NCBI GenBank assembly: GCA_965178125.1
Contig: OZ237750.1
Location: 620,001-684,000 of the forward strand
Direction: 5' to 3'
Length of the DNA stretch: 64,000 nucleotides
DNA from: Bilabrum cf. latius
Lineage: Eukaryota
This document shows positions 1 through 64,000 of the stretch, piece by piece. Made by a program: the position numbers and the translations under genes. The notes under the pieces were generated by a model that searched no databases, had not been told where the DNA came from, and worked only from the letters and a program-made list of their open reading frames with translations. Numbering within the stretch: the stretch's first letter is position 1; every line of letters starts with the position of its first letter.

Positions 1-809
1 TGAACCCCCTTTGAGGCAGCCGCTTGGGACGGTGACCGCAGCGGGCTGCGCTGCGCGGCGGCAGATGCGGCTGCGCGACTCGTGCCCCTAGCTTGAGCAT
101 CATCATCGAGATCTTCAGTGTCCAGGTCGGTGGCCGAGGCCTGGTTGCGAAGCATGCTCTCGCCCACGTCCTGCACGGCAGGCACGGCTGGCGAGGACCC
201 TCCGGCATGCGCGCTGCTCGCGCTTCGTGCTTTGGAACCCTGTTTGAGGGAGAATGACTGCGCAGAAGGATTTAATTTATTGCCTTGATGTGCAAGCACG
301 GCCGACTGCAGCATGCTTGGGGGTACTGATTCAGTCTTCTAGGTTTGGCTGTGGTCGTCTTCTGCATCCCCATTGGCTCCACTCGCCGAAAATGATTTCG
401 GAACGCTACCAGGAGCTACATTAATGTCATCAATTGCTGCTTGTCGGAGAATGTGAATTGGTGCCCGCTGGTGTTCCAGATTAGGGCTGCCAAACAGCGG
501 GACCACCTGCTTGGATTCAAATCCGATTTTTTCCGCCTGCTTTTGCGGCGTATCTGATCCTGCACCGAAGGAAATTTCATGATAAGTAGATGATTTTAAG
601 TCTTATATAGAAAATGATCATCAAATTTAGACAATTAACGACCACAAACGGTGCTTACTTGGAGCCACCACTAGGCGAATAGTGCCGGTGAAGTTGCTGA
701 GACGAAGGCACACCTCATCCAGCGATACTCTGGTCTGCAACCCTGATCCACATGAAATATATACATCTAAAGTGTCCCCAGGCGTGTCAATGGTTAGTGG
801 GGCTGACAT
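1..809 (-). CDS. Hypothetical protein, 3' end outside window (exons 809-659, 559-<1)
   Basis: ATG at 809; a GTAAGC..TGCAG intron at 658-560 keeps the frame. The frame is open to the window edge if TAG at 341-339 is sense. Contains KLNPSAQSF, weakly PAM2-like. Confidence 0.55.
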
Positions 810-928
810 TTTCCTCGGTAGTCTGCGATCCAATTTTCGAAGATGTTTAGTCCACGGAGCGAATGTTCGCCAAAGTTCGCCAGGCGAGCCCAGTTCGCTG
901 ATTTCAGATTGCCGCCCAGGTAGCAAGC

Positions 929-3373
929 ATGGCCTCCGTAGCGAAGGCCTCGGCGAGCTTGCTGTCGCTGGCTAAGCGTGATCTACTCTCTGTCGCCCCA
1001 ATGATGGCCTGGACGACCCGTGCTTACCGCTACTTTGTCAGAAGCTGTACGTCGAGAACGAAGTTGTACACCGAGATGTATGTGGCAGACACGATTCACT
1101 ATGCAAATGACAGGCAACTTCGCGAGCTGATGGAGTTTGAAGAAATCCAGAGGCCGCTAGCCCTGCAGCTGGGTGGCTCAGACCCGGACCGCATGCGCCA
1201 GGCGATGCGCCGGGTATTGCCGTTCGAGTACGACGAGTACAATTTGAATTGCGGGTGTCCAAGCGACAAAGTAGCCGGGAAAGGCTGCTTTGGAGCAGCG
1301 CTCATGCTTCGCCCGGAGCTAGTCCGAGATGTGGTGGGGGTCATGGTGGAGGAGGCCCGGAAATGGTCGAACGACGAGGGGAAGCCAATGCCAGAAATCA
1401 CTGTCAAGTGCAGACTCGGCGCAGACGACATGGACACGTACGCCGAATTTCGCAACTTCATCGCGGTGGTCGCAGAGACGGGGGTACGTCACTTCATAGT
1501 GCACGCTCGGAAGTGCTGGCTCAAAGGCCTCGACCCCAAGGCCAACAGGAACGTGCCCCCACTGCGGTACTCTTGGGTGCAGCGCGCCGCGCTGGACTTT
1601 CCCGGGCTGCGAATATCTGTCAATGGAGGAGTGAAGAGCCTCAGGGAGACGGATTTGTTCCTCGGACTGCGCCCTTGCCCTGGCTCCCAGGTGGGGTGCA
1701 CCGACAGAAGCGAGGGCGCTGCCAGCAGTGCCAGTGCCAGTGGGGACGGGACGAGCGAAGGCAAGCGGAGGGATGAGACAACAAGTGCCGGAGCGACGGG
1801 GGCCGGGTCATCGCTGGATCTCTCCATCAAGCCCAGGACGGCAGCAGAAGAGGCAGCCATGGCCATGCTCACCTCCCAGGACTCGGCTGGTGGCACGAGC
1901 GGCACCACGGCGAGGAAGCTCACCAAGCGAGGCGTGCAGGTGAGCAAGGACGGGCTTGGTCCCGATGCAGGCAGCAGGTGGCGTGTAAGGGACGATATTC
2001 AGAGGCTGCACGACGCCCGCGCCGAGTGGAAATCGGCTGACGTCGCCAGACGGCGCGCCGTACACGAAATCCGCGCCAAGGAGGCCGAGGCATGCAGGGC
2101 ACGGGGGGAAGAGCCGCCGTGCCCGCAGGAGCAGGCGGCCAAGGAAGCCAGTGATACCGGCCCCCCGCGTGCCAGTGACCCGTCGTTGCCACCGCCAAGA
2201 CTGCAACCCGGGGAGGCCCCTCTCACGGTTCCCGAGCCTGTCCCCGTGGAGGGCGAGGTGCCTCTGTGGTTCGACCGAGAGCGCGCGGAGGTCTCCAGCG
2301 AGTCGGCATTCTCGGCTGAATCTGCTACCGCTGGATCGGGGGCAGACGGTAGCGCAGGAGGTGCCCTGATCGACAGCGTGATGATCGGCAGGCAGGCATA
2401 CTACAGCCTGTGGATGCTGGCCGATGCTGACAGGAGGTACTGGGGGGCCAAGAACCGGGGCCTTTCTCGACGGGAGGCCGTCCTTTGGTACGCCCGCACC
2501 TACATCGTGGCGCGGCTGCAGAGGGCTGCCGCAGACCGCCACGGCATGGATTTTGAGACTGCATTTCGCCGGGAGGAGGAGGACGCCGTGCTTGAGGCCG
2601 CGCAGGAGGAGGGCTACAGAATACACAAGAAGGCGACTGGAACGGACGACAGTGGCGGTGACGGCGGCGAGGCTGATATCAAGGAGGTCGACAAGGCAGC
2701 AGCGGGTGCAGCCGACGCACCCGATAGCAAAGAGGCCGGCATAGCGGCGGATCCAGGGGACGGCAGGGAGGGAGCGGCTCGCCGCCCCAAAGGGAAGAAA
2801 ACAGCGGCAGAGAAGAAGTGGCTTCGGCGGTACGGCAACAACAAGGTAGGGTGCGACTGCCACGGGCTGCTGAGTCCGATCAACTGCATCATGTTTGGGG
2901 TATATGGCGCCAGCAGGTTCAAGAAGAGGCTGCAGGCCATGGCGATGGCATGGAAGGACTTGGACTACAGGCGCGTGCTGGCGTGGCTGCCGGCCGATGC
3001 GGGTGCCCCGCTCGCTACTGGGGCGAGTTCCGAAGCTGTCGCTGGTGGCGATGCTGCGGGAGCTGGCACAGCTTTCGATTTCAGCAGGGAGGACTTTCCC
3101 GAGTTCGACCCGGTCAAGGAACTCGCCAGGGAGCTGGACGCGATGCTGCCCTACTAGCTGGACGAGAAACCCCCTTCGTCGCACGAAGACCTGCCGCCAT
3201 TGGGCTGGGAGGGTGACCCGCCCCGGATTACCATGGAAATGAAAGCTGCGATTGCGGCGAGAAGGGAGGTGAGGCTGGCGGCAGAAGCGCGTGCCAAGGC
3301 GGCTGAAGAAGGCCATGCTGGCTCATGTGTTGCCGCTGGTAGGAGTGGTGCGGCGGAGCCTCGTATCGGTTGA
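929..3373 (+). CDS. dusA: tRNA-dihydrouridine synthase, DusA-like, with large low-complexity insertions
   Basis: Motifs SVAPMM, LYTEM, LQLGGSDP, NLNCGCPS, GCFGAALM, TVKCRLG, FIVHARK, NRNVPPLRY, NGGV, VMIGR. Reads through TAG at 3155 to TGA at 3371. Confidence 0.9.
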
Positions 3374-3437
3374 CCGCCAAACCCTGACGCTTTAAAGCGC
3401 ACACAAATGGTCAAATTCGTAGAAATCGTTGCGCTTA

Positions 3438-6400
3438 TTAGTCTTGTAGCAGGAGCACCTCGCAGCCCTGCCCATTCACAGCCAGCAGGTGCAGGTCTGT
3501 GGCTCCGTCGACACCCGACCGCAAAGCCGTCCCGCCGACATCCCCCACCTGCAACTCAATGACTTGCTTCAGCTGCATGCCCGCCTCAGCCGCAGCAGCT
3601 TCAGTAGCGCACGGCTCCTCATCAAGCTCGATGGGCCTGGGCCCTAGGCCCGCCTCGATCAGTGAGGCCAGCTCGTGCGCTGGCGAGACACCAACACCGA
3701 CCTCGGGTCTGCCAGACGCAGAGCTGGCACCTTCCACTTCAAGCTTTTTGGCTCCCCAGCCCGGGGCCAGCTCCCACACCAAGGCCCGCGAGTCTACGCC
3801 GACCGAAACCGCCTTGCTTGTACCCATGAAGTGCACCCCGCGCAGAGCAGCAAAGGACGCGCCCGGCACGCGAGCCGACCTCACCACGCACAGCTAGTAC
3901 CGGTGCGACTTGGCTGCCATGCTAAGCTGCAGCCTGCAAATGCACTCGTCATCTCCAGCGGTTATCACTTGGAACGACGTGGTGCCGTCCTCAGCTTGAC
4001 CTTGTAGCCTCACATCGAGCGCATTGACGCCCGCATCGTGGGCCTGCACCGAGCCGAGCAAGTGAACGGAGGCACCAAAGGCAGCACCATCAGACGCCTC
4101 GCTGCCAGGCTCCGATATCGCAACTCTGAGGACAAACAGCACGCCGCTAGTTCCGCCGCACATCACGATAAACTCCCTGCCTGCAGCAGTCGCAGCCGTG
4201 CGGAGGGCCTTGACTGACAGCAGCGGCTGCCCGAGATCCACTGAACACAGCAGAGTCAGACCGGGATACTCCTGGGGTGCTGATCCGCCGAATGGACCGC
4301 ATTGAAACACCATGAGCTGCCCGCTGGTGCAGGCTGCAAACCCAATGGCCGCCTGAGCCGCAGCAGCACCTCCTGCTGTAGGGCTCAAGGCGAGGGGCAC
4401 AAGATCGGCGCATGTGATTCTCTGATCAGCGATCTCCACGGCGTCCTCGTCTGTACCGCTGTCCAATGCTTCTGATGCAGCGGCTTCACTCTCAGGCTCT
4501 AGCCTTGTGGAGGGTGCCGTCGCGTCGTCGATGGACAGCAGCTGTGTCGGAGTCCCAACCAGGCGGTGGCCAGCGAGGAATTCCGGCAGAACCACTGGCA
4601 CCTGTGAGCCTTCTTCTGCCTTTCCCGCCGATCCAGACTCGATGTCTAATCCCGCCTCAACACTGGAGGATTTCTGATCCCGAGTCAGTGCCCACAGCAC
4701 TACCTCTTTAGCAGCGCCACACGACACCATCAGGCCTAGAGGCTAGGTGCATGAGCTACCAGAGAGCCCCTCTAGATGGCAGGAAGCCACGGCGCGGGGG
4801 GAGCCGGTGTGGCCCAGCAAGCTCGCAATGTGCTGGAGTGCCACGGAGCCAGAACCCATGCTTGAGCTCACAACAGCACGCTTCACCATCACCTGCATGT
4901 CCTCTCCAACAGTACAAAGCAAGGAACCATCGAACCCATCCGCATCAAGGAACGCAGCATGAAGCCCTGCCCTGTCGTGCGACGGGCACCCCAGCACAGC
5001 CGGTCCAACGAGAGGGAGTGCGTCTCTGAGATCGGATTCACCGGATCGCTCCAAGGTTCTGGGGATGCCCCCGATACTATGGGCCTTGCAGCGCATTCTA
5101 GCGTACCGAAGTCCGCGGAACAGGGGAACGGGCTTAACCTTCTTGCCCTGCTTCTTCTTCGCCTTACTGGTGCTGCGCTCGAGAGTCCCCGCTTCACTTG
5201 GGGCTGATGCAGACTCTGCAGAGTCACCGACCTACTCAGCTTTGCTGCTTGGTTTCGGAGCATTGAGCTGCTTCAAGGCCAACAGCAAATCCGCATCAGT
5301 CTTTGTTCTTCCGTCTTCAGGTCCAAGCAAGGCCTCAACTGCGCTCAGCCCCTTCTGCCCCTCGCAGTGTGCGATGCCCGAAGCGGCCGACAGGACGGAT
5401 CGAGAGGCAGGCCCGTCTACGTGCTGAGCATAGAATGACAAGGCTGGGTCAATCGGCTGGCTCGCTCTCCCGATGTGAAAGTCTCCGCCCAGGCCTGCCC
5501 TGAAGCTCCCAAAGGATGCAGTCTCGGGCACCCCGCTCGCGTGCACCCGCAGGAAGCGAGCCTCGACCTTGGCCTTCCCGACCATGAGCGATGCTTCCTG
5601 TGTCTGATGCAGCTGGGTGGGCAGATCGGCAGCCCACGGCTCAAACGTGCCATCCGCTAGTGAAGCGCTCCCGGAATATGTCAGGTCAGTGGCTCGCCTC
5701 AGCTACACAAAGGCGCGAGGGTAATCGCTGCGAATCACGGATGGGTGCCAAGGGACTCGAGAGCTCTCGAGAGCGAACGCGACCGTGTTGACCTTGAATC
5801 GCTCGGTGGCCTCCAGCGCAACAGCTGCGGAGTGGCTCTTTTTCGCACCTTTTGCTGCGGGAGGGCCATCACTGGCACCGGCCCCGGACAACGCCTCCCT
5901 GGCCTTGATCTGCCGCCTCGACACGCCTTGCCTGCGCTGGGCCCGGCGAGACAAAGACGACATATCCCGCCCTTCCTTTTGGTCCCTGTCGCCGTACCCT
6001 TGCCACGGCAAAATTAAAGCGTCCTGAGGTCCATTGCCGTTGAATTCGGAGCTTAAATCCATCAGGGACCAGCTCAAAATATGGGCACTGCTCTGTCCGG
6101 TGCCAGGCACGCTGCCGCTCGAACCGCTTCCTGTGACAGCCGATTCGTCAGACATTGGGACACTGGGGCCCATGGAATCGGCACTAAATGATCTATCACC
6201 GGTCCCATCAATGTTCTCCCAAGTCCCCCTCGCCACCAGCACGGTCACCCTGCTCTCGGACATGAACATGTGTGCTGTGTCACCGACGCATCGAAGACGA
6301 ATCAGCGAAGCGTCCTTTCTGCGCAGGCGCAGCACCGCCGCTGGCGGGACTACGCCGGCAAGGGCCGACTGCCTAGTTCCACGGGAACGCATGCTGCTAT

Positions 6401-9024
6401 ACGCTTCCACCAAGACGGATTTCCCCCGCATTTCACCGGCTGGCACTCCGATGCACGACCCGTTGCTGGCGTGCTCCAACGGCAGCTCGTGCTGCTCGAT
6501 CCCCAAAGCTCTAAAAGGCAGCAGCACAGCGCAGTACGACTTGCCCAGCACGCACAACGCAACCTTCCCGCCGTCCATACTCGTCATATCTCTAGGCTCT
6601 TGACCTGCCTGGATGAGGTGCGTGCCTTGCAACAGCAGCCGGCTCGAGGGACCACCCGTTGGTGACACACCGGACTGCAGCGCGGTAAACGTCGACACGA
6701 TACCGCCGGGCATGTACGTGACAAACTGGAAGGATGACGCAGACTCCTCGTCGCTGCAGCCAGGGACATCCTAGCGGAGGTCGGACGGGAGGTTCTCCAC
6801 ACGGACGTTCCCGCGCTGCATGCCGAGGCGACAGGCAGCCACAGGCACGACGCACGCTTCTCCTCTCGCGGTGCCAGGCGCTGTCGACACGACACGAATC
6901 TTGCCTGTGACCAAGCCACTCGCCTTTGCTGCCGATGATGCCGCCCTAATGGCATCCAACGTCACGCCGTGCATGCGAAACACGTGCAGCGTGAGCATGG
7001 TGGTAACCACAGCAAAGTAGCCGCGGTCCTTGTCCACGGCCATTGAAGCTACCTGCGTGCGACTGCGGAGTGCCTCTGCAGCGGCGCTTAGGCCACTGCT
7101 GCTGCCGCTGCCACTGCTTAAGTCACTCGGTGCGGGGGCAGCCGATGACGAGGCCGCACCACTTGCAGGGCCAGGAACAAGCTCAGCCACCTGCTCCAGC
7201 ACGTCCTCAATGGATACCAGCTCGACGGGAGGTAGCTCACCAAATATTTTCTCGTGCACCATACTTCGCCTTGAATCCGGCCCAGCTGCATCAATATCAC
7301 CCTCTGGCAAGCTTGCCATGCCGAAAATCCCGTTGATTGAGGTTGCGCATATGGCACTGCTCCCACCGTGCAGCAAGGACACATCCACCGCACAGCCACC
7401 CCCCTATCGCTGCACAAGCTCCAACAGCGTCTGCACAGCAGCCTCACCAACATGCGAGCTCGCCTCACCTCTGAATGATTCATCAACAGAATTTCTGGCA
7501 GACTGCAGCGCAGCCGCCACTCTGTGCGGAATGAGAGCCGTGCCCTCTGGCATGCCGGGCTGCAGTCCGGTTCCCCGATTCTGCTCGTGTGCCACCCACG
7601 CACGCGTCATGAGTCCCCTCACCGTGCCATCACCGCCACCAGTCCACACCACCTCTTCTCCGGCGGGATTGTTCCCCACGCTGAGGCACCACCCGCCGTT
7701 GCACGAGTGCATGGGCGTCCTGCCCATCAGCTTGCCGGTGCTAGGACACGACAGCACGAGCTGCCCATCGCATCCCATCGACAGAAGCCCCCTATCTGAC
7801 AGGCCAACCTTCCAAACTCTATCACCGTGCGCGAACCTCTTCCAAGCACTGCCTACTGTGGCCACCCCGTCAGCTGCAGCAGAGCCAGACTCTGCCTCGC
7901 GCAGAGAGTGCACCTCCCACATGCGCAGCTCTCTCGCATCTCCGCCTCCCGCAACTCGCAATGTGCCCAGCTCAGCAGCAGAATCTGTCAGACCACCAGC
8001 TCTACTGCTAGCGGTTCTGCCGCTGCTGCTACCGTGCGCAAACCAAGCAACCACATCTCGGACGGGACCGTTGTGGCCGACCAAGACGGCGACATCCCTC
8101 ATGACGGTGTGACGAGTGGGCGAGGGCCGGCTGATACAAGATGCAGAAAGGCTAGTTTCCGTTTCGTCGGACGCGCCTGCAGGTTTGTTTCCCTGCAAGT
8201 CCCCTGCCCCTCCTCCGCTTGGGGAGAGGGACTCACCCGACCCCTCGGGGCCGAGGTGCAGGTCAACCACCCGCACGGTGATGGGGCCAAGATAGGAGCA
8301 GGCGCAGCTGATCACTTGCACGGGAGCGCTTGGTCTTGCCGCTGGCTGCAGCAGGAGTCTATGTGCTGATAAGGTGAGTGCCTGCCTGTCGGCGGGGACC
8401 GCGGCTGTACCCCACTCCAGGCCGATGCTGCCTGGGCTCGACACCGACGCGGGCTGCCACACTGCAGCCAGCGATAGGACTGGGCCATGGTTCAGAGCAA
8501 GGGCAATTGCGATTCGATGACGCCTAGAGTCGCCAGTCGGCTCGGCGGGTCCCTACTGGAGCACCTGGATGGAAGAGACCGTGTCCCCCACTAAAATGCA
8601 GCGCTCAACAACGGCTGACTTAAGCGGAACAAGCCGAGGTCCAGGACCGGTGGAGCACTTTGCCAGTACCGCCAGTACATTGAGGAACGCGATGGCATGC
8701 AACGTCCTTACTGCTACCAAAGCGCTGCCATCTGCCATGCTCAAAATCTTCACTCCCATCGCAACACCTCTGAGTGCTTTGGGCAATCGGATACGAGCAA
8801 TCTGCTCGCCGGTAATTGCATTACCCAGGCATACTTCGCGCCCTCTTGCTGCGGTTCCAGTTGGCACATATCAATCAAGTCAAAACATGGGCACGAAAAC
8901 TGTATCCCAGACTACATCCGCATGCCATCGATTGCTCACCATACGCGACAACGCTACCGCAGGAGCTGACATCGACAGATATGATTGGCCCTGCGTACCC
9001 TGCTGGTACAACATGCGTATCCAT
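3438..9024 (-). CDS. WDR6: WDR6/Trm734-like WD40 protein (partner of tRNA 2'-O-methyltransferase Trm7/FTSJ1), about 1,830 aa; exons 9024-8940, 8848-3438
   Basis: Eight track ORFs in one frame are joined by TAGs at 8553, 7404, 6771, 5703, 5232, 4743 and 3894, ending in TAA TAA. WD motifs HGDRVWKV, TGGGDGTVR, TVGEDMQV, AHDAGVNAL, TAGDDE, SVGVDSR and the C-terminal GQGCEV follow the WDR6 order. Confidence 0.7.
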
Positions 9025-9176: not shown

Positions 9177-11204
9177 ATGATGCGCGTAAATCGAGCCGTA
9201 AGACAGCTAACGGTGCGCGGAAGCGCGCAATATTGCCAAAGATATGCCTCAGCGGCAGCAGCGGCGGCAGCAAGCCTTCCGGCTTCGGATCGAGGCATCG
9301 GCATCCTTGGGATGGAGTACTACGGTAAGCTGAACCCAATGGTCAACATTTTACTGATATTTTATTTTCTGATCTGTGTTTTGTGGGGTTCTTGTGCCTT
9401 CTGAGGGGTTCATAGAGATGTGGCATTCAACTGAGAATTGGATGCTGCACAGGTGGATTGCACTTAGAACGCCTCAGATTACGGGGCATACGGACCGAAA
9501 ATGTACCAAAGTGCATCAAGTAGCTATGATAAATGCATCTTACGGGCCAGCTAAGCCGTGCATGCTTGCAAGCCGATTATTTGGCGACTGCGAGACGTTT
9601 CTCCGCTGCAGTGCAAGCTGGAGCGGATGACGCGCCGTGCTGCTTTGGGTGTGCTGCTGGCTGACTTTGCACTCGCCGTGCGCGGTATTGCTGAAATCGA
9701 ATTTATGACTTCGGGGTATGGCGGATTATCTTCTCAATTTTTGAGAAGTGCAGCCCGCTCAGCAGGCTGGATTCAGCTGCCTGCCGTTGCTCGCGAACTC
9801 GCCCAATCACCGCTGTGTTTCGTTTTCGTTTGCCTTCTGCGCTTCGCAGTGCCCAGTCGGTATGTGTCCCAGTCTTCTCTCGAGAAGGCAGACGGCGTAG
9901 GGGAAGGCAAGTACACCATCGGCCTCGGCCAGACCAACATGGCGTTTTGCTCTGACCGCGAAGACATCAACTCTGTGATGCTCAACGCCGTCGATAGGCT
10001 CCTGACCAGCTACGATATTGATCCACGCGACGTAGGCCGTCTTGAGGTGGGGACAGAGTCCCTAGTTGACAAGAGCAAGAGCACCAAGACGACGCTCATG
10101 CGCCTGTTCGGAGACAACACAAACATCGAGGGCGTCACGCAGATCAACGCCTGCTACGGAGGCACGCAGGCGCTTCTTGATTCATTGTCTTGGTGCCAGA
10201 GCCTCGACTGGGACGGACGGTACGCCATCGTCGTCTGCGGCGACATCGCGGTGTACGCGCCCGGACCGGCTCGCCCCACCGGTGGAGCCGGTGCGGTCGC
10301 CATGCTGATCGGCCCTGACGCCCCTCTCAAGCCCGTGTCCGGCGGCCGCACCACATTTTGCGGCGATTTCTACGACTTCTACAAGCCGAGCATGGGCAGC
10401 GAGTACCCACTGGTTGACGGCGCCCTCTCCCAGGTGGCCTACATCCAGGCCGTGGACTCGTGCTACCAGGGAACAGTGGGCAAGCTGGAGCGCATCGACG
10501 GGCGAGACTACCACACCGTGCGCACCGCCGTGAACCACATGGCCTTCCACGCCCCGTACAACAAGCTCGTGCAGCAGTCCCTCCGTCGCCTGGTATTCAA
10601 CGACGCCGTACGGGCGGCGGCCAAGGGGGAGAGCCGGGCAGAGTTCGCATCCCTCGCTCAGTGGGTGGACCCCTACGTGAACGCAGGGAACAAGGAGGCC
10701 AAGGACGCCGCCTACAGCGCCACCCTGGCCGACCGCAACCTCGACAAGGCCCTGCAGAAGCTCCAGGGAACAATGTACGAGGACCTCACCGCGGTGTCTG
10801 ACAAGCTGCCCAAGCACATCGGCAACAGCTACACGGCCTCGCTGTACGCTGGTCTGGCGTCCGTGGTGGATTCCCGCGGGGCGGGTCTAGTCGACGAGCG
10901 TGTGGGCATGTTCTCGTACGGCTCCGGATCCATTGCGACCATGTTCGCGCTGGAGGGGAGCGAGACGAGCACCGGTACCTTTTCGCTTGACCGCATGCAG
11001 AGGGTGCTCGACCTGGACGCTCGGCTGGGGGCCCGTCGCGCCGTGAAGGTGGACGAGTACCTCGAGTCGATGGAGCAGCGAGCGCAGACCTACGGGACGT
11101 CGTCGATGGAGCCGCTGGGGCGCGTGGAGGACGTGCCCAAGGGCTCCTTCTACCTCGCTGGCGTGAACGAGCAGTTCCACCGCGAGTACCGCCGCCGCGA
11201 GTGA
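9177..11204 (+). CDS. HMGS: Hydroxymethylglutaryl-CoA synthase; exons 9177-9324, 9850-11204
   Basis: GILGMEYY|VPSRYVSQ across a 525-nt GT-AG intron; motifs GKYTIGLGQ, VGTESLVDKSKS, catalytic NACYGGT, ARPTGGAGAVAML, FHAPYNKLVQ, GNSYTASLY, FSYGSG; TGA stop. Confidence 0.95.
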
Positions 11205-11936: not shown

Positions 11937-13586
11937 TCACACACCAGCCTCCCCCGCATGCGCCACGCTCGATCTCCTGTGGGCCTCTGTCTCATGCCCT
12001 GCCTCCTCCACGGGAGTACCCGCCCCGCCCTCGGCAGACTCTTCCTCGCTAGCAAACGCGCGAACGGACGCACCGTACTCGGACGCAGTGGTCGGAGTGA
12101 GGCCACCGGACCCAGCACCCGACCCGGGCCCCGCCCCAGCGCGGGTGCTGACTCGAAGGGCCTCCAATCGGCTCCCCGACCTAGCGCCACCCACAACCGG
12201 CTGCAAACTGCCGTTCCCGCTGCCAGCGCTCTACCTCTTAAGAGGAGAGCCGGCACGGCGGCCTCCAGACCCCGACCCATTCATCAGCTCCACCCTAACC
12301 GACCCTGATGGCCCTGTCGCACCGACGCCCCGTGATCCCTCCGTGGACTCCCCCACCTCGGGGTCCCTGTGGAACCCCTCCCCGCCTAGCAAGTGGTGCT
12401 GGTCTACAGCAGCACCTGCCCCGGGCAGCGCATCCTCGTGGTCAGCCCTGGAGCCCGATCTTACCTTCTGCTTCTCCTTCTCTTCTTTCTCTGCGGCCTC
12501 CGTCGCCCTCGCCGCCTGCGCCTCAAGTGTCTTTACGTACGCAAATATGACGCCGCCAGTAAGCCCAAACGCCATAAATATAATAGTAGACGGCTTCACT
12601 GCGGCATCAAACACCAGCAGGCCGATGAGGGACAGCGGGATCTTGTTGAGCGCGCCCACCATCGAGTATGTGGTGGCTCCCGTCTCGCCCACGCACCACA
12701 GCGATGCCAGGGACAAAAAGAACCCGACCGATCCGGAGAACAAAACAGCGATCCAGAAGGTAGGCCAGGACATTTGCTCCGCGGAGAGTGCCCCAGGCAG
12801 CTCCCCCATGAGGAGGGAGAGGAGGAAAGAGAGCGGGATGGCCATCGCGTTGTTGTAAAAGGCCTGGTCCTGACGGGACATGTCCTTGAAGTCCGCGGCG
12901 GCGCGCAGGTACAGCACGTAGGTAGCGGTGGTGAAGCAGTTCAACAGCATCCATGCGTATCCAGTCAGTCTGTCGAGGATGCTGTCCTCGTCGGCGCCTT
13001 CCACGCTCGATGGATCGGTGCTGGCAACGTCTCGCAAGTCGGCGAAGCCGGCCAGGATTGCTCCCATGACAAGGATCAACAGGGCACCCAGCAACATAAT
13101 ACCAACGCGCTCGCCGAACAGATACCTGCAAGGGGTTGTTAGGATGCACGTAATACGCGAAGGACTTGGTTGCCGTTGGCACATGCAAGGGTTGGGGACC
13201 GGTCGTTCGTGGACCACGACTCACCATGCGCCTGCCGTGATTCCAATGTTCGTCAAATTTTTGAAAATGGTAACAATAGGCATGGACAATACCCCTAGAG
13301 CCCTGAAGCTTGTGTAAAGCATAGCCACAAAGCATAGATTGACGGGAAGCCATTTCCGTGCGAGATCCCAGTTGGGGTGGTTCAAGTCATGGATCAACCC
13401 CACCCGGAAGCCAATGAGCTATGTTACTACTGCAGCAGTTGACTGCAGCGCGAGCAGCAATATATGCGACTAGAATCCAAGATGCGAGACCAAATGCTTA
13501 TTTGCAAGCGTCATCGAAATGCTGCAGGCGCTATACGCAAGAATTGACGCAACCTGTCTGGCCCATTTGGGCAACAATGTAGGCAT
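11937..13586 (-). CDS. Golgi nucleotide-sugar (GDP-mannose, VRG4/GONST-like) transporter; intron 13224-13126
   Basis: Motifs AYSACSISMTLANK, WLPVN, TIFKNLTNI, GYAWMLLNC, FYNN, TTYSMVGALNKIP. In-frame TAGs at 13470, 13419 and 12231; TGA at 11937. Confidence 0.88.
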
Positions 13587-18600: not shown

Positions 18601-19400
18601 TGCAGTACGTGGCTGTGAGCGTGCTGGACGCACTGTTTGACTTTGCGGGACCCGAGGCCTTCGGCTTGCTGCCCAAGGTCTTTGAGGACATGAAGAAATT
18701 CGCGGGTCACCAGCACCCCGACCTCAGGCAGTGCGCCGCCTACGGCCTCGGCCTAGTGGCCGAGAAGGGACCCCCGGACGCAGACAAGGTCATGCCCGCC
18801 ATCGTGGGCGCACTGCGCTCCGGCCTGTCCCTTGACTGCGCCAGGGCGGACGAGGAGCAGTCGCGCAGCACGGACAACGTGGTGAGCTCGCTGCTCCGAG
18901 TAGTTCGGTACAGATCCAAGGCACCCGGCGTGGACGCGGGCCGCATCCTCAAAGAGTGCGTCCTGCCGAATCTGCCGGCCACCGACTGCCCCACGGAGAG
19001 CAAGATCATCCACGGGTGGGTCCTCCGCGCCATCGAGGCCAAAGACGGCATGCTGCTGGCTGCCGCGGGGGGCGGCGCTAGCGGGGCAAGCCGGCTGCTG
19101 CAGCTCCTGGCCATGATGCTCGGGGAGCACCACGTGAAGGTGTTGTTGTCTGACGTGGAGTACGAGGGCGGGGAAGAGGTCGGTACGGAGGTGGACGAGG
19201 AGGACATCCCAGGCATCCTCTTCGCGAGCGACTTGCCTCTCGCCAAGCGCTGCGTGGATGCCCTGATGGGCGGCCTGCCCAAAGAGGCAGTGCAGGCGGT
19301 GCTGGGGAAGGTACCGCCGCCGGTATAGGAGCTACTGAAGGATCCAAGTCAGGTTAGGGACCCGGAGGCACTGATTGGTGCGATTCACGGCGAATTCTAA
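15631..19400 (+). CDS. Importin-beta family karyopherin (importin-4/5-like HEAT repeats); intron 15763-15857
   Basis: WPDLLPFI, NWKERYAGL, DPHPRVRY, PRVHGAA, GEKFKPFLPRIIP, EEKESA, DLRQCAAYGLG, TDNVVSSL. In-frame TAGs at 15646, 15721, 16542, 18477 and 19326; ends at TAA 19398. Confidence 0.88.
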
Positions 19401-20006: not shown

Positions 20007-20132
20007 CGCACAATAAGACCTTCTGGAGCTTCCCACTTGTGTCCGTTCAAGAGTAGGTTCCGCAGGTGGCCGCGGCGCGGCGCCTGCTGTGCATCTGCCA
20101 GGATTCAGAAATTGCCTCTACCGGAAAGGCAT

Positions 20133-26252: not shown

Positions 26253-27887
<1,635 letters not shown>

Positions 27888-53600: not shown

Positions 53601-56600
53601 CGCCCCGCCGCAGCTGGCCGCCGACCCACCGGACATCGGGGAACAAGGGGTCCAGTCGGACCAGTCGCTCACCACGCAGTCGTTCACGGAGCCGTCCCCG
53701 AACCAGTACCGGTGGTTGTACTCGGACCACAGGAGCCTCGCTTCCTGGCGGTCGAGCGGGCGATCGTACAGCCTCACGTCGTGCAGCTGCCCGCAGAAGC
53801 GGTCCCTGCCCTCGCCGGTCGACGAGGTCTGCGACGAGCCGATCAACAAGGCCTTGGGAAGGGCCGCCAGCGCGCCCGGGCCGCTCACGCTCACCTCGGC
53901 ACCGTCCACGAAGAAGGTGGCCACGTCGCGGAACCCATCGTACGTGATCACGGCCGTGTGCCAGTCACCCAGCGGAGCGTTCGCGATGAAGCCCTGCGGG
54001 CTCGCGCCCCCGTTCAGGTTGAGCAGCGCAGCCACGCTGGAGCCGTCCTGGTTGTCGGGCGACCGCACCTCCCAGCTGGCGGAGGTCCTGGGCCCGTTGC
54101 CGAACAGGTACTGCGAACCGGACGCCAGGCGCCTGCGGTAGAACAGAGCCGCGGTGAAGCCCCTGGGGTCGTTCTCAGTGCCGCTTGCCTGCCCCGTGGG
54201 GTTCTCCCAGGCGTATCCGGCGAGCCCGGGCACCTCAAGGTGCGCGTCCCAGCAGGAACCCATCACGGCCATGCGGCGGGAGGCGGACGCGGCGCCGCCG
54301 ATGGCGGCGTTGCCGAAGGGGAAGTCGGACGAGGAGCCGTCCGCGCGCAGGGTGGCGTCGTTGCCCGCGCCCGACCGGTCAGACACGGTCACCACGGGCG
54401 GGGGGTTGGGCTCCTGCTGCGTGGGCGTCACGGGCGTGACCACGGCCTGGGACGTACCAAACGTCAGCCACAGCGAGGCCGGCAGCGTCGGCAGCGAGCT
54501 GGAGGACTCCGCCGACGTGCCAGGCTGCGCGGGTCTCTGGAAGTCCGCGTCGGCCTCGATGAACACGGGCCTGACGGCGCCCAGGATGGCGCCGTGGGCC
54601 CCCTGCGGACCAATGTCCTCGATCCCCACCACGTCGTCCGAAAAGATCTCGAGGCCCTCAATCAGCACGTCATCGCTCGTGTCGCCGCGCAGGTAAGCGG
54701 CCACCGAGGGGCTCAAGTTCAGGTCCGCCTCCGCGGCGGTGATGCCGCCGCCCACAAGGCCAGTCACCAGCCCGCTCTCGCCGCCGGTGAGCGTGTCCGA
54801 GTCGCTGCCGAACAGGAGGGCCCTGGCGCCGGTGCCGTCCTTGGCCTCGCTCCACACGGTCAGGCCGCCCACGTACCCCTCGAGGGAGAGCTGGGGCAGC
54901 AGGCCGGTGCCGCACTCGTACGAAGCCGCCAGCCCGTCGCGAAGAGCGCCCGAGGACGCGATCTGGCCGAGCATGAGGCATCCCTGGGAGGAGAAGGAGG
55001 GCCCCGCCAGCTGGGCGCGGGCGCCCTCATCGTCGGCCGTTGCGGCTGCATCGCCCTGCAGCGCAGGGCCGGGCCCGTCGTAGACGTCCCTGCCATCCAC
55101 CCACACGCGCAGGTTGCGGCTGCTAGAGGACGTGGCCCACGCCACGGCGATGTGGTGCCACGAGCCGTCCCTGATCTGCACGCCCGTGGCCAGCGTGCTG
55201 CCGAAGAGGAGCACCTGCAGCTTGCCAGCGGCGTCCATGAGGCACACCAGCTCGTTGCCGCCGCTGCCCTCCGTGATCGAGGCGCCGCCGCTCCCATAGC
55301 CGGCGTAGCTCAGCAGCGCCGCGCCGGCGTCGTCGTCATCGTTGGTCCTAACAAAGAACGACACGGTGGAGTCCGAGGTAGGGTAGGCGAGCCCGGGGAA
55401 CTCCGTGGCGTTGTAGTCCACCTGCACGCGCGCGCCCAGTCCGGGTGCGTGCAGGAACACCTTGTCCCTCCTCTCTGAGGTGCGGAAGACGTACCGCTGG
55501 TCCACGAACCGGCGCGTGGTGGGAGCGCCCGCGGGAGCTTGCCCGCCCCCCGCCACGTACTTGAGGTGGAACTCGAGGGTGGCCTGGGCCTCGCCCCCGT
55601 GCTCGTAGAACTCCATCTCGATCGTGTGCAGACCGCGGGACAGCACGACGTCGCCCGTGTTTGTCTTGTACGCCCTGGGCCCGTCGTGCCCCGTCACGAG
55701 AGCTCCGTCGATCCAGACAAGGCCGCCGTCGTCAGAGCCCATCCTGAACTCGTAAGTGCCCGCCGTATCGATCTTGAGCAGGCCGTGCCACCGCACGTAA
55801 AAGTCGCTGTCGGGGATGCCCTGGTACGGCCCTCCCCACACGTTGTTCCTCCGGGCGGCGATGTTGATCTCGTCCACCACCCCGGTGACGCGGGTGCCCA
55901 GGTCGAGCTTGTCGGGGCGCAGCTCGTCGAACGTGCGCTTGCGCTCGGTGATCTCGTACCCCTCAAAGGCCCAGCCGGGCTCGAGGCCGCCGGTGTCCAC
56001 GGGTGCCTGCGTGGAGCCGCCGGTGCCCGTGCCCGTCCCGGTCGGGTTGTGGAACAGGTGGGCCGGGCTGCCGGATCCCACCTTGCGCCATTGCTGCGTG
56101 GATTTGAAACAAAGGTAAGCAACTTATGAAAGTAGCATGTCCATAGGCAGTGTCTGAATCCAGGCCAGCCGTTCCATGGCGTCGGGGCGGCGCAAGATTC
56201 GATTGTCGTCTCTCACGTTGAAAGGGCCGGGGCCGTCCGTGCTCTTGAACTCAAGCGTGAGCCCAGCGGTTCCACCGTTCTGGAAATGGTCCACCTGCGC
56301 GGTACGGATATGAGGAGGAACATCAAATACTCGCGGTTCTCATGCTCGCACGCACGCGACGAACAGCCGCTGCGAAGTGTGGGTTGCAAGCAGAGAGGCC
56401 ATCGGATGCTGCTCGCGCACTCGCTTCCAAACACTCACGCGGATGTTATGAAGGCCCTGGCTCAGCTAAATGTGCTGGCTCGTCTTGTGGGAGAAGGAGT
56501 GCCCCCCATCATGGTTGATTGCCTGCGGTAGCAACAAGAATCAAGCAGAAACTCAAATGATCAAGCCTCAGCCGAGCATCACAGGCACGCACGGAAATAA

Positions 56601-57652: not shown

Positions 57653-58790
57653 ATGGATCGCCTGTATCGGGTAGCTGTTGCCATTCTGGCTGGAGTTGCA
57701 GTTGGGCGGCAAAGTGCAGAGCTGCCACATCTGATCATCGACACGGATGCATCTACCGATGTAGACGATGCAATGGCAATTTGTATGGCTAATGCTCTTG
57801 AGGACCTAGGGGAGGTGCGTATTGCAGCGGTCGTGCACAATGTGGGGTATCCGAAAGCGATCGGTGAGATGGCACGGCACATGAACTCCTCACCGATTTA
57901 ACTCCTCTCGCCAAGTCAACGGGCAGACTAATATCTACTTTATTATCATCGCAGGAGCTGTATCCAGTTTGATGCACTGGTACGGCCGTGACAACGTCTC
58001 GCTGGGAGCCTACAAAGGCCCGTTCGGCCGCTCCCCAACCGGGCAGTGGGTCCCGGGGCGGTACGTTGATGACCTCGTGGAAAACTTGCCAGGGCCAGTG
58101 ACCAACTACGACTAGGTTCCGGACGCCGTGGCGGTCTACCGCAGGGTGCTGGTAGCCGCGCCGGACTAGAACATCACGATCGCCTCGATCGGGTTTGCGA
58201 CCAACTTGGCGGGTCTCCTGCAGTCCCCCCCCGACAGCATTAGCCCCTTGAACGGGTCGCAGTTGGTCGCAGCAAAGGTGAAGCGAGTGGTATGGATGGG
58301 CGGCAACTACCCTGTGGGCAGCGCCAGCTGGAACTTCGACTGCGGTGGACGTGCCTACGACCCGGTAGGGTGCCAAGGAGACGCGGGGATCGCCGTGGGG
58401 ATGATGCCGACGAGCGTGGATCAGGTGTTCTCCGGACTTGGGAAGGACGTGCTCACCGGCGGGGTGCTGACCGACTGCGCCCCTCCGTCGAACCCATGCC
58501 GGCGAGCCATCATCGACAGGCAGGGGCCGGGCACTCCCCGCAGCAGCTGGGATCCCCTGGTGACCCTCGCTGCCATCCGGGGGGTGGATGCAGTGCACTG
58601 CAATCAGCAGGGAAGGGGAGGCCGGTGTGTCGTAAGCCCAGCGGGGGTCAATAAGTGGGTGACCCCGGGCGTAAACGAGACGTACCTGGCCTTCAATGCG
58701 CCCGCGAACGCTTCGATGCAGGCGCTCGGCCTTACCATCGATGACTTGCTGTGCAGGCCTCCTGCCTTGCAAGATCGCGCCTTAGATTGA
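57653..58790 (+). CDS. Secreted nucleoside hydrolase-family protein; intron 57864-57954
   Basis: Signal peptide; IIDTDASTDVDDAMA (Asp-rich Ca-binding motif); SIGFATNLA, WMGG, WNF, SSWDP. TAGs at 58113 and 58167; TGA stop; branch-point-like GACTAAT in the intron. Confidence 0.88.
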
Positions 58791-58937: not shown

Positions 58938-61900
58938 ATGGCTTCCAGCAAGGAAGCAGAGCAGGAGCTAATACTTCGATTGGCTTCATTGGCATCTTTG
59001 CAAAACCAAGAAAAGTAGTTGGCTGCGACTTTGGCAGCTGCGAGGCTGAAGGGAAGCCCGACCGAGATTATTGAAGGTCTCAAACATGGCAATCTTTCTC
59101 GCCTTTTGAACGTCGCGTCACATGACACAAGTGAATCTGGTCTCCCAGTTGAGCCACTGCTGCGCCTTCCGAAGAACAAGTCAGGCTCGGGTTCCAGAGC
59201 AGTCTACGGCGCCAGCTATAATCTTGGCGGCAGCCCGGGGCCTGCTCCTGGCGGGCGCAGGGCAAGGCGAAAAGGCTCAGTCGTAGCAGCCCAAACCAGC
59301 ATCTCTGAGCATGCTGGCGTGAAAGTATCTCACGGCCAGAGCGTTGGGATCATAGTTCGCAAATTGCAGTTCCAAGTGAGACTACCGTGCTGTAGTGCTT
59401 TGCTATTCCAGCGCTTGTATCCAGCAAAAGGTATTCAATTTGTACACCACCGAGCCGCAGTTGTCTGGTGGAACCAAGGGAGTAGCCAGGAAGCAAGACA
59501 TAATCTTACTCCCAGGTGGTAAGTCGTACTTGCAGCAGGGTGCAAGTGCGTGCCTGTCCCAATCTGAATGCTTAGCCAGATGAGAAAGCCCCGTCGCCTC
59601 CTCTCGCAGATGCCGACGTCACGAAATCTATCATGGAGGTGCCCGATAGAACGGCATTTCGTCGAAACCGGCAGCTCGACGAGATTAAAGACGTAGAATC
59701 TGAGGATGGCTCGCCCCTCCCCGACGAATAGTGGTCGCTGGCCATCGTGGTGAACACGGACGTGGATGCCGCTGTAGGGGAGACGCAGCCCGTATGGATT
59801 TTCTTTAATAGCTATGTGGACACCCTGTTCAAGGTCGTGAACCAAGGCGTTGGGGAGAGCGAGCAGGGCGAGGGCGAAGAAAGCGAGCAGAAGAGCAGCT
59901 CCGCCGACGACCCGGCCTCGGCCAAGAAGGCAGGCAGGGGCGTGTTTGGTTGGCTGTGCTGCTGCTGTGGGAGCGGGGTCTCAGCCGAGGAGCTGGCGAA
60001 AGCGGACCGCGCGTCCAAAGACAGGGCGAAAGCTAGCTCGGATGCGGCGGCCGCTGGCCCGGCGGCTGCAGCACAAGAGGACGGCAGCCCTGGCGAGGAC
60101 CTGGGCAAGGGCATGCAACCCGGTGACAGTGGCCAACCTTACGAGGACGGCGAAGACGACGGGGATTCAGACTACGACTGCGACGCAGCCGACGGAGAAC
60201 CGGCCGGGGGTAGAGATGGCGAGGTTGGCGGGGAGAGACCTGCGTTGCCTAGCATCAACACAGGGGCGGACGGAATGTCTTTAGAGGAATGGAAGGCCCA
60301 GGGACAGGCAGCCGAACTGGGCTCTGAGCCTGGCGACGGTATCGATGGCAAGGACGGCGCCGTGAGCACGGGCCACGCCATCGTTCCATTCAGCCCATAG
60401 GGCAAGGGCATTGGGAAAGACGGCTAGAAGCGGTCGGTGCGCTTCGATGCTGGTACCAAGGAGGACGATGATGAGAACTGGCATTCTGGGGGTGATCAGG
60501 ACGAGGAGAAAGCTGCTCATGAGGGCGGGATTGTCGATTCTACGTCGGGGGCTGGCAGGCATTCGATCTCGGGCGACGGAAGCAGCCCCGAGTCTGTTGC
60601 ACCTGCTGGCTCAGCAGCCCCAAGCCGAGATGCTGCCGCGAACACACCTGGATCGAGTGGTGCCCCAAGCGCTGCAAGCGCAGACAATGTGGCTGGTGGG
60701 GACTCACCCAAGGCTCGCCGCGAGAGGAAGAAGAAGCGAGGTCCCAGAAAGCAGAAACAGGCTGTAACTGTCGTGGATCCCATGCCCGATATCGTGGGTG
60801 ACTTGGCATTTGGCAGCATGATGGCTGTGATGGGCCTGCCAGTGCCCCTCCAGCAGACGAGTGGCCAAGACGGAGGCTTCGACTCCCAGTCGTCAGGGGG
60901 CGACAGCAGCGATTCAGAGGGTGAGCATGGCAGCGATGCGACCGAGTCTGGGGACGACGCCCAGTAGTCCGCAGCAGGCCGTACGGGTGCAGCCAGAGGT
61001 AGCGAAGCTGCCTCGACCATATCAGCACCAGTCGTGCTCAGCCGGGGCGATGGGCCCGACACGGACAGCAGCAGCAGCAGCAGCGGTAAAGCAGCAGGCG
61101 ATGACTCGGAGCCCAGCCGGAAGTTCCAAGAGGCAGAGCTTGCTGCTGTACACGGGGGCGTGGTCAGCATCTCGGGTGCCAAGTCGGAGGGCGCAGCGCC
61201 CGGCACCAGCAGCACCTCGCAGCGCAGGCTCATGCGGGGCCAGGCCAGCCAGCCGCTGCAGACACCAGCCGAGCGAATGGAGTCTGATCGGGGGCTAGAC
61301 GCTCTTTCGAGTGCCTTGGTGGGAGGTGTCGAGCTGTACGAATACGGCGGTGGATAGGGGCATGGGAATGGAGGTGGTGCTGGGTCGGGCTCTAGGGGCG
61401 GGGCGGCTGGTCTGGGTGGAGCGGGCAGGGCAGGTGGCTCTGGTGGTGGCTCTGGTGGTGGCTCTGGGGGCGGTGGTGGCTCTGGGGGTGGTGGTGGCTC
61501 TGGTGGCGGCTCAACTGAGTCAGGTGCATCTGGCGATGATGCGCTGCGCGACATCTCGCTGGTAGGCGGTGGCATACACGCCGGTCTGGGCCTCGATAGC
61601 CTGTTTCGCGGCGCCGAGCACGACACTTTTGGAGCAGCCAAGGATTTGCGCAGAGACGACGACTACCAGCACGTGCTCCCACCGAGCCTACCGCCAGGCA
61701 AACCCATCGCTTCCGCTGCGACCACACAATCAGTGCTGGACAAAGCTAGCCGCTTGCTGAAGCAGCTGGACCCCGGCACATGGAAGGACTCGAAGAGAAC
61801 TGAGGCCAGTCGAGACGATGAGGTAGGTGCACATGATGCTGGCGTGAGCTAGGTAGATGGTGATGGGGAGCCGGAGCAGAAGTCAGCTGCTGAATCAACA

Positions 61901-62353
61901 AGCAAGACGAACCACGGGTCAGCTCAAGGCTCCAGTAGGCTAGCTGGGGGCTTGCCCGTGGTCCTTGCACCAGAATAGCCTAGACGAAGTATGGGCGCAA
62001 GTGTCGGCAGTCCTGCCGATGTGACAAGGTAGCAAGCGGGTCGGTCCGGGTCTGTGGAGGATGGACCATCTTCGTCGTACCTATATATGCCTAACTCGAT
62101 CGATGGTATAGACTTTGCAGAATAGCCCGCCGCCCCTCTCCCTAGGGACAGCGCCGTGAAGACAACTAGGTCTGAAGCGCCGCCACGAGCAGCAGCTGGC
62201 GGGTCGGGTGCATCAGCTCAAGCCAGCCATGGGCTCACCTTCAGAGACTTGGCCGATCGGGGCTCCGATGGATACGTCGGCAGTCCGTACATGCGTAACC
62301 TGTACACATCTGCGATCGAAGGGGCGGGAGACGAGATGGACCCGCCGCCTTGA
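58938..62353 (+). CDS. Hypothetical, largely disordered protein (introns about 59376-59424 and 59519-59609)
   Basis: Track ORFs 59747, 60437, 61034, 61646 and 62156 share one frame, joined only by TAGs and ending at TGA. Contains a WLCCCCG cluster and a Gly/Ser repeat at about 61370-61510. Confidence 0.6.
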
Positions 62354-62652
62354 GGCTCGGTGATGAGAGTCAAGGGATGTGATCGAATAGAATAGTATAT
62401 TCAGTTTGGCGAATTTCGCTTTAGAGGCACAGTCGGGCCCAAAGGCAGGTGAGCGCGTCACACAAGAAAATCACCCAGTCTCCGCCCCCCTCTCCCGAAC
62501 ACAGAAAGGGTATGCGCGTCATCGCAAGCAATCCGTAGGCTCGGTCGCACCTTCCCGGTTGCGACCGCCAGCGGAACCGAACCCCGTACGGCGTTGGGGT
62601 TAATAAGGTGTAGCCTCAGCCGCCAGTCGTCCGCACCGTCTTTATCGGGGCC

Positions 62653-64000
62653 TCATTCGCTGTCATCCCGATCTGAGGACTCACCAGAGCTCTCACTCGA
62701 TTCCTGTAAAGCTGCTCGAGTGCGTCGCAGCCTGCCACCTCGAGCAGTCCCGCCCTCCAATGCAGCCGCAGCCTCTCGCTCTGCCGCCAGTCCCAGACCA
62801 TCCTCAAGAACCTGCACTGCCACTCGCGCGGCCTCCACGGCCTGCTGATCCTCGGCTCCCACCATTTCCTACCAGCCCAATACCACAGCCACTGCCCGGC
62901 CTCCGATGTCCTCGGCATCGTGGTGTGGGAGAGCGGCGAGAGCGTACAGGCCCGCGCATCGGCCAGCAAACGCTGGTCCTTCCATCAGTGTGAGAGTTCC
63001 TTGTGCACCGCCAGGTGCACCAGGTACTGTTCTGTTTGGCTCAGTAACACGATTGCCGTAATCGTGGTCAACGGAAGGTCCCCGGTCCCGTGCCGAGGCA
63101 GTCGCAATGGCGGCAGCAGCTGCACCTGTGGCAGGCAACTCATCTAACGTGCTAGTTGCACCTGTGATCGGCGCAGCATTGCTGCCTTTACTACGCCCCT
63201 GCATGCCGTCGTTTTTATGCACGCGCAACTGTCCCAGCAGGACGCCTTTCATGAGTGACTGTGAACCGTCCGCTTCGGCAACCCGCAGCAGTGCGTCGCC
63301 ATCCGGACCCCAGCGAGCTGTAGCGCTGGCCTGACGCCTGCCTGCAATCGAATCACCCACCAGGTCCGTGCCAGTACTACCACTACCACTACCACTGCTG
63401 CTGAGCGCGGCAGGCTCCGCCGCGCCCATCAGCAGATCGCATCGCACAGCGGATGACGAAGGTCGCAAAAGCCACGGCACGTGCCTCGTTCGCAGCCACG
63501 AAAAGTGACCGAACGCCCACTGCAGGGGAGCATCCAAGGCAGCTTGCAGAGGAACTGCGACCAGCATGGATCCCGCGCAGGTCGCAGCCCACATGGTAAG
63601 CATGTGAAGCGATTGGAGCTGGAAGCTACCTGTGTCCGGCCTGGGAAGCATTCCCTGGTCGTCCTGCTCTGGCATGAGCACTCCCGGCGTTGCGGGCCAG
63701 GGGGGACCCATAAGCTGCAACATTAAGCAAGCTACGAGCGGTGAAGCTATGCAAGCAGCCTGTGAGTGCCTGGCCAGGGCTCGCAGGGTCCCATCGACGG
63801 ACAGGCCATTGCCCGCATCTGTAATATCCTTCCTCCCTGCAGCAGCACCCGCGCCAGTAGCAAATTCCACCCTTGATGAGCAGCCAAAGAGCGTCATGGC
63901 TCTGTGAAATCCCCAACTCCACGCATCGAGTCGCGATAAGTGCGACAGCCGCAAGCCCCTTACCCACTCGGCGCCGCCCACCACCACCCACGCATGCAGC
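62653..64000 (-). CDS. Hypothetical membrane protein, C-terminal part (start outside window)
   Basis: Open frame from the window edge through TAG at 62869 to TGA at 62653, with hydrophobic segments. Confidence 0.5.

Follow-up and report, generated by a model that had tools for sequence, protein, structure and literature searches.

Genes and in-frame TAG codons of the window

We analyzed a 64-kb window, which is the whole stretch of 64,000 nucleotides at positions 620,001 to 684,000 of contig OZ237750.1 (deposited as Bilabrum cf. latius), for the meaning of the triplet TAG, UAG in RNA, which lies in frame in most of its genes and is most likely read there as glutamine. The window was crowded with eukaryotic nuclear genes, and its GC content was 62% overall, ranging from 57 to 71% along its length.

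The 19 gene models were built by stop-to-stop reading with TAA and TGA as stops. The coding sequence (CDS) was started at the first ATG, except in six partial models, where it was taken from the start of the open reading frame (ORF). Pfam scans of the window proteins were run with TAG masked as X, and the gene names below are supported by Pfam unless stated otherwise. The position of a TAG is given as its first base for genes on the plus strand, and as the highest coordinate of the codon for genes on the minus strand.

The dihydrouridine synthase (Dus) gene (902..3373, plus strand) carried a single TAG (3155), 71 codons ahead of its TGA. Next to it, on the minus strand, a gene for a protein of 1810 aa (3435..8870) contained seven TAGs (8555, 7406, 6773, 5705, 5234, 4745, and 3896) and ended in a tandem TAA-TAA at 3435-3440. 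The HMG-CoA synthase (HMGS) gene (9555..11204, plus strand) had no TAG and ended in TGA. The partial nucleotide-sugar transporter-like gene (11937..13220, minus strand) and the OXA1/60KD_IMP insertase gene (14157..15464, plus strand) each had one TAG (12233 and 15114, respectively) and a TGA end. The importin-5-like gene (15852..19400, plus strand) had three TAGs (16542, 18477, and 19326) and ended in TAA at 19398-19400, and the Prp31 gene (19965..21938, plus strand), which encodes Nop and Prp31_C domains, had five (20454, 21003, 21375, 21387, and 21750) and ended in TGA.

All genes in the middle of the window that were located on the minus strand ended in TGA where an end was recorded. The methyltransferase gene (22761..23921) had three TAGs (23435, 23414, and 22952), and the Sel1-repeat gene (24014..25981) had four (25915, 25738, 25558, and 25105). 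The zinc alcohol dehydrogenase (ADH) gene (26051..27797), with four introns, had no TAG in its last exon. Six TAGs (30878, 30176, 29930, 29552, 28478, and 28241) were found in a gene with a WSC domain and a GH3 beta-xylosidase-like domain (28182..31244, the GH3 gene hereafter), and seven (33687, 33366, 33363, 33150, 32697, 31893, and 31683) in the protein kinase gene (31276..34011), whose conserved C-lobe follows the last of them. Two of the kinase TAGs are adjacent and in frame (33361-33366), within an N-terminal, low-complexity segment of the protein (…IPVPXXSSVY…). The Aa_trans amino-acid transporter gene (34196..36121) had five TAGs (36007, 35977, 35851, 34828, and 34531).

Further downstream, the gene for a nucleoprotein TPR-like coiled-coil protein (36496..42852, plus strand) had the highest number of TAGs, 11 (36679, 36691, 36763, 37141, 37600, 37618, 37921, 41779, 41956, 42142, and 42817), and a TGA end. 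The CDS of the 43.4-kb ORF had none. A 3827-aa adhesin with PA14, VWD, teneurin-type EGF, and pAdhesive_15 domains and a Ser/Thr/Pro repeat (44640..56123, minus strand) had three TAGs (53432, 47993, and 44744), and the partial nucleoside-hydrolase-like gene (57885..58790, plus strand), whose protein had no match in PDB, had two (58113 and 58167). A low-complexity protein of no Pfam family (59504..62353, plus strand, the 59.5-kb gene hereafter) had nine TAGs after the first ATG and one upstream of it, and a gene of unassigned family that is cut by the window edge (62653..63999, minus strand) had one (62871). These last four genes all ended in TGA. The TPR and adhesin genes (36001-56000) had a GC content of 65-71%, compared with 57-63% in the rest of the window, and the coding strand of the TPR gene showed strong G and A skews.

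In total, 69 in-frame TAGs were found in 16 of the 19 models, which together comprise 17,131 codons; the TAG-free CDS models were HMGS, the last exon of ADH, and the 43.4-kb ORF. Two models each have one further TAG ahead of their first ATG, and an unmodelled ORF (13601-14722) has two more, which brings the total to about 73. TAG accounted for 69 of the 735 Gln-type codons (9.4%), beside 588 CAG and 78 CAA. As terminators, TGA was used in 17 models and TAA in two, the importin gene and, as the tandem, the 1810-aa gene.

A preliminary description of this DNA had counted about 80 TAGs in 19 of 21 genes. The pattern it described was reproduced, and its count was slightly high. It had also listed 18 TGA and two TAA ends among 20 genes, and both of its TAA ends were recovered, with the TGA count standing at 17 of 19 here. 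The Prp31 string that it quoted, FRD*ILA*IDKWDEPPP, is present in the window, and its labels TPR, importin, and OXA1 (60KD_IMP) were supported by Pfam. Its label 'WDR6' for the 1810-aa protein was not borne out, as this protein had no match in Pfam or in PDB.

Coding signal on both sides of stop triplets

None of the 19 models contained an internal TAA or TGA, as the preliminary description had claimed. This observation is circular for ORFs that are bounded by those same triplets; hence, a separate test that did not rely on ORFs was used. A codon-usage score was trained on Pfam-supported ORFs of the standard code, and every stop triplet in the six frames was scored, with 40 codons on each side required to score >0.3. 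Coding signal on both flanks was observed for 38 of 775 TAGs, for 0 of 329 TAAs, and for 0 of 1466 TGAs. Half of the TAG positives (19 of 38) were false, lying in the wrong frame of the Ser/Thr/Pro repeat of the adhesin (50091-51624), and the other 19 were in gene frames. Seven of the 11 TAGs of TPR had coding signal on both flanks, and so did the TAG of OXA1. In the off-frame reading of the adhesin repeat (49306-52251, minus strand, …HGFVDSDAIDH…), 21 TAGs occur and the codon-usage score is high.

With the standard code, ORFs of at least 300 aa summed to 19,090 aa; reading TAG as sense raised this sum to 36,189 aa, reading TAA to 21,733 aa, and reading TGA to 51,241 aa. This plain test of ORF length was not discriminating, since in GC-rich DNA no stop triplet is as frequent as TGA, whichever frame is read. 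The ORF-independent test and the gene models confirmed that the in-frame TAGs are real and specific to TAG.

Retention of TAG in spliced contigs

Positions 15800-35799 of the window were compared with the contigs of four public runs, X1, X5, X6, and X7. In X1 the same stretch was present as a single unspliced contig of 30.9 kb, and X6 contained long, DNA-like contigs. X5 and X7, which come from separate studies, contained gene-sized contigs of widely varying depth. Four introns of the ADH gene (26997-27149, 27366-27461, 27565-27672, and 27707-27796) were removed in both X5 and X7; the joints had CT..AC ends, which are GT..AG on the minus strand, and were absent from the DNA run X1. Contigs of X5 and X7 also jumped from 15857 to an exon at 15732-15761, which places an intron of 95 nt (15762-15856) in the 5' part of the importin gene. 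Because of the removed ADH introns and the importin joint, we took X5 and X7 as transcript assemblies. These contigs defined five spliceosomal introns in all, 90-153 nt in length and with GT..AG ends. Most other genes of the window appear intronless across their conserved parts.

The X5 contigs covered 21 TAGs in five genes (three in importin, five in Prp31, four in Sel1, four in GH3, and five in the kinase) without a single differing letter and without a gap or joint at any TAG, and X7 covered 14 of these 21 sites. Importin was covered by X5 record 8 and X7 record 22 with no differences. The same was true of X5 records 9 (20121-22112, Prp31), 10 (24082-25989, Sel1), 12 (28529-31084, GH3), and 13 (32189-34052, kinase). 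At all covered TAGs, the DNA runs X1 and X6 and the transcript runs X5 and X7 matched the window, and CAG was found at none of the covered sites; UAG is thus kept in RNA. Since the transcript contigs keep TAG unchanged, misassembly, editing of the RNA to CAG, and unrecognised introns were excluded as sources of the TAGs.

The only tRNA gene that ARAGORN and Rfam detected in the window was tRNA-Asn(GTT) (22463..22535, plus strand). Just downstream of it, one X5 contig skipped 200 bases (22696-22897) with GT..AG ends on the plus strand, a joint that reaches into the 3' end of the methyltransferase gene on the minus strand. It points to a plus-strand transcript that is spliced and runs antisense to the tail of that gene.

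Sequence nearly identical to 15800-35799 was present in runs X1-X9, which four studies had filed under four organism names. Runs X10-X17, including runs labelled as algae and as a protist metagenome, contained small shares, which were not used as evidence of habitat. The organism may often accompany or contaminate other cultures and samples.

Homology across TAG and orthologs in a related species

Alignments to known proteins ran across the TAGs. The alignment with human Prp31 (3jcr_J), covering query residues 134-597, crossed four TAGs and nearly reached the TGA, and those of the GH3 protein with fungal beta-xylosidases in PDB (query 187-911) crossed three. Pfam domains crossed TAGs in Prp31, GH3, Aa_trans, and importin; the Aa_trans domain (104-483) crossed the TAG at 34828. 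The best matches of Prp31 were 36-45% identical, and the best named one was from Pelagophyceae sp. CCMP2097 (40%), with a bit score near that of human Prp31. Named matches of GH3 included a choanoflagellate and Pelomyxa, and clusters of HMGS in a protein atlas were broadly eukaryotic only. The homolog search with importin gave two weak matches, both at 23% identity, so its TAG columns were uninformative.

A HMMER search with GH3 returned two short proteins that matched parts of the window protein at 70-74% identity. They sit on the same contigs in the cluster look-up, suggesting that they are one gene of a relative that was split by the gene caller. A scan of metagenome contigs with such a GH3 fragment found a contig of this relative, L001 (10,038 bp, 55% GC). 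It carried a complete WSC and GH3 ortholog, with 626 of 918 aligned residues identical (68%), nine in-frame TAGs, and a TGA at the same place as in the window gene. It also carried a gene for a 1748-aa TPR_12 protein with 16 TAGs and a TAA end, and the C-terminal piece of an SLC12 gene with one TAG. The three ORFs, two of which end in TGA, thus contained 26 in-frame TAGs and no internal TAA in about 2,950 codons. One TAG was common to both species, at the same position of the WSC domain.

In L001 (1-8170) the GH3 gene is flanked by the SLC12 tail and the TPR_12 gene, and that of the window by the kinase and ADH genes, so the locus is not syntenic between the two species. The TPR_12 and SLC12 genes had no counterpart in the window and hence gave no further ortholog pairs. 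The Prp31 query found no relative among the metagenome contigs, and neither L001 nor a second contig, L002, had a detectable tRNA gene. L002 was rejected as a relative; its GH3 is unrelated (28% identity).

In a protein collection, Prp31 was present as fragments. Three at 97-98% identity ended exactly at TAGs of the window, and others at 69-78% identity belonged to the relative. One fragment of the near-identical strain, P0179 (98% identical), reads ...FRDQILA and then ends: it has Gln at the window TAG at 21375 and stops at the next TAG.

The orthologs allowed the residues that stand opposite TAG to be counted. For GH3, 11 positions had TAG in one species and a sense codon in the other, and the partners were Gln in four cases (CAA, CAG, CAG, and CAG), Ala in two, and Asp, His, Val, Glu, and Thr in one each. 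For Prp31, three window TAGs were matched in fragments of the relative by Gln, Arg, and Ala, and two fragments of the relative stopped at positions where the window has Gln. Gln was therefore the commonest of the pooled partners, with 7 of 16 against a background frequency of 4.3% (binomial P = 2e-6), and the 3 of 16 for Ala are what its background frequency predicts (P = 0.30).

Probable reassignment of UAG to glutamine

We concluded that in this nuclear code UAG has changed from stop to glutamine, with UGA as the usual and UAA as a rare terminator, which corresponds to NCBI translation table 15; we give this reading a probability of about 0.84. That TAG is a sense codon with UAA and UGA as stops, as proposed in the preliminary description, was supported by the homology across TAGs, by spliced transcripts that keep TAG, and by the same pattern in the relative. 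Its assignment of the codon to Gln agrees with Gln as the commonest partner and with the Gln of the 98%-identical strain at a window TAG.

Several observations weigh against this conclusion. A CUA-anticodon tRNA was not found in the window by ARAGORN or Rfam, and the eRF1 gene lies outside it. The runs X5 and X7 were labelled 'RNA?' as a guess, X5 also 'probably DNA', and none of the runs listed as containing the sequence is registered as RNA, so that the status of X5 and X7 as RNA rests on the spliced joints. Nine of the 16 ortholog partners are not Gln, and the stop codon at the ends of the two Prp31 fragments of the relative was assumed to be TAG and not seen. Distant homologs mostly have residues other than Gln at TAG columns, and TAG sites are weakly conserved. 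Lastly, only low coding scores followed the last TAG in Dus (-0.08), in the methyltransferase (-0.28), and in the 59.5-kb gene (-0.10), and the tail of TPR past its last TAG is 10 codons long. Occasional termination at UAG could still occur in these four genes.

The four weak or short tails speak for an ambiguous UAG, one that mostly stands for Gln but ends translation of certain genes or in certain settings, as happens with context-dependent codes. However, no model among the 19 requires TAG as its terminator. In 12 of 16 genes the segment past the last TAG outscored every true 3' flank, apart from the flank that lies at the window edge. The coding score fell after the terminal TGA both in the window models and in the ORFs of L001. 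Homology extended past the last TAG in Prp31, GH3, and the kinase, and TAGs were evenly distributed along the genes. We consider an ambiguous UAG improbable, though it is the strongest of the alternatives.

A sense codon for Glu, Lys, Arg, or Ala instead of Gln is suggested by distant homologs, whose columns at TAG are rich in these residues, and by the Ala partner at three ortholog positions. In Prp31, Glu predominates in column 415, all 11 homologs have Lys or Arg in column 419, and most residues in column 291 are Glu, Asp, or Ala. At column 565 of GH3, the best-conserved TAG site of that protein, 150 homologs had Ala in 42 cases, Gln in 38, Glu in 15, and Arg in 11. Glu is nevertheless a poor fit to the Lys/Arg column of Prp31 and Lys a poor fit to its Glu column, and Gln is the single residue compatible with both. 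With conditional probabilities derived from BLOSUM matrices, the log10 likelihood of Gln over the runner-up Glu was 3.0 (BLOSUM62) or 5.4 (BLOSUM80), that is, a factor of 10^3-10^5, and larger over the remaining residues. With only the 11 DNA-verified GH3 pairs, Gln was still ahead by 10^1.4 to 10^2.5. Together with the Gln in the near-identical strain and the background level of Ala, these values make another residue very improbable, and glutamine is the most likely meaning of UAG on statistical, not biochemical, grounds.

The code of many ciliates (table 6), in which both UAA and UAG are Gln, would require that in-frame TAA is lacking merely through GC richness. CAA is indeed rare in the window (78 versus 588 CAG), so that only about nine TAAs would be expected, and TAA is the rarest stop triplet (331 versus 777 TAG). 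Even so, no TAA had coding signal on both sides or lay inside a model, the importin gene ends in TAA, and coding signal drops after the tandem TAA-TAA of the 1810-aa gene. The less GC-rich relative was more informative: its CAA:CAG ratio is 38:62, so that about 16 TAAs would be expected from its 26 TAGs if both were Gln, and none was observed. UAA is therefore not reassigned, and it ends two genes of the window and one of L001. This alternative is slightly less probable still than a different residue.

That the TAGs are untranslated (pseudogene lesions, assembly errors, unrecognised introns, RNA editing, or low-level programmed read-through) is scarcely credible, since only TAG and never TAA or TGA is affected, DNA and transcript contigs agree at each covered TAG, the genes are conserved across TAGs in 68%-identical orthologs with one TAG shared, and a TAG-TAG tandem without read-through context is present. 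Programmed read-through of stop codons was rejected on the 70 evenly spread sites, on the base at +4, which was G in 30 cases, C in 21, T in 10, and A in 9, near the pattern after CAG, and on the tandem.

By analogy with other recoded eukaryotes, a tRNA-Gln with the anticodon CUA, one change away from tRNA-Gln(CUG), would read UAG and not UAA, and recognition of UAG by eRF1 would be lost or reduced. According to PMC5304391, no anticodon other than CUA can read UAG without also reading UAA, and tRNAs of this kind occur in other recoded eukaryotes. The same paper describes no obvious change in the eRF1 of a rhizarian with recoded UAG, and an altered eRF1 is thus perhaps not diagnostic. In a GC-rich genome with nearly all genes ending in UGA, UAG would have been a rare terminator and hence easily captured; the predominance of UGA at gene ends is consistent with the capture of a stop codon that was seldom used.

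Comparison with known codes

Nuclear reassignments of stop codons outside ciliates are few, and cases in which UAG was changed and UAA kept are fewer still. Codon capture could be put to a natural test in a GC-rich lineage where UGA is the dominant terminator and UAG means Gln, and such a lineage would be useful for studying how eRF1 separates UAG from UAA. There is also a practical consequence. Standard gene callers cut such genes at each TAG, and the public proteins are present only as fragments that end at TAG, so the proteins of this organism are under-represented and mis-annotated in public collections.

We compared the window with known recoded lineages by their descriptions and not by sequence. 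The ciliates Hartmannula, Trochilia, and Protocruzia are AT-rich and have short chromosomes, whereas the window is GC-rich, carries spliceosomal introns roughly 80-150 nt long, and matches a DNA contig no shorter than 30 kb. As described in PMC11687900, Hartmannula sinica, Trochilia petrani, and Protocruzia tuzeti use the same table 15, which was inferred as here, from columns with conserved Gln and from terminator use; nearly all of their C-terminal alignments end at UAA, unlike the window with mainly UGA. The same source lists, as further nuclear splits of UAG from UAA, a rhizarian (Leu), Iotanema spirale (Gln), Scotinosphaera (Ser), and a ciliate in which UAA is Lys and UAG is Glu (PMC11687900).

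A close counterpart by description is Iotanema spirale (Fornicata), which has the same code, with UAG as Gln and UAA and UGA as stops (PMC5304391). In both organisms UAG makes up a small part of the Gln codons, about 8% in Iotanema and 9.4% in the window, and the same mechanism is predicted there, a tRNA-Gln(CUA) unable to read UAA (PMC5304391). Iotanema is, however, an anaerobic flagellate with UAA as its primary terminator (PMC5304391), whereas in the window 17 of 19 models end in UGA, the GC content is 62%, and a gene of the OXA1 type is present.

The uncultured rhizarian exLh (UAG as Leu) and Scotinosphaera (UAG as Ser) resemble the window in that UAG is uncoupled from UAA in a nuclear genome outside ciliates (PMC5304391 and PMC11687900). 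They differ in the residue, as the 16 partners showed no enrichment of hydrophobic residues or Ser and included neither Leu nor Ser. Amoeboaphelidium protococcarum is a non-ciliate on the opisthokont side that is cited as reading both UAG and UAA as Gln, and its recoding of UAA is unlike the window (PMC5304391 and PMC6299283). It was considered in view of the small shares of the window sequence in runs with algal and protist metagenome labels. Its genome has a GC content of 40.5% (PMC10608142, Table 1), and an aphelid identity was rejected on GC (40% versus 62%). The Prp31 search gave no named match above 45% identity and none from Amoeboaphelidium.

A search of full-text literature gave no report of UAG as Gln in a GC-rich non-ciliate; most subscription journals and supplements were outside its scope. 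Table 15 is already known in a few unrelated protists, and the lineage with it here is apparently unreported, although a published description may exist or be in preparation, as the sequence data are from 2025. The UAG-only change to Gln may have arisen independently in it.

Giant viruses that read TAG as Gln have the same codon table (PMC13524828). The window is cellular, unlike these viruses, with genes for spliceosome, nucleoporin, and importin proteins and with spliced introns. If our reading of the lineage is true, it would be a candidate type of cellular host for giant viruses with code 15. We put the full picture forward tentatively, at a little less than even odds: an independent origin of the UAG-only Gln code in an undescribed, GC-rich, intron-poor lineage of at least two species (68-78% protein identity in two genes), in which the change predated the species split, because one TAG is shared at the same position of the WSC domain, and which is a candidate host of giant viruses that share its code.

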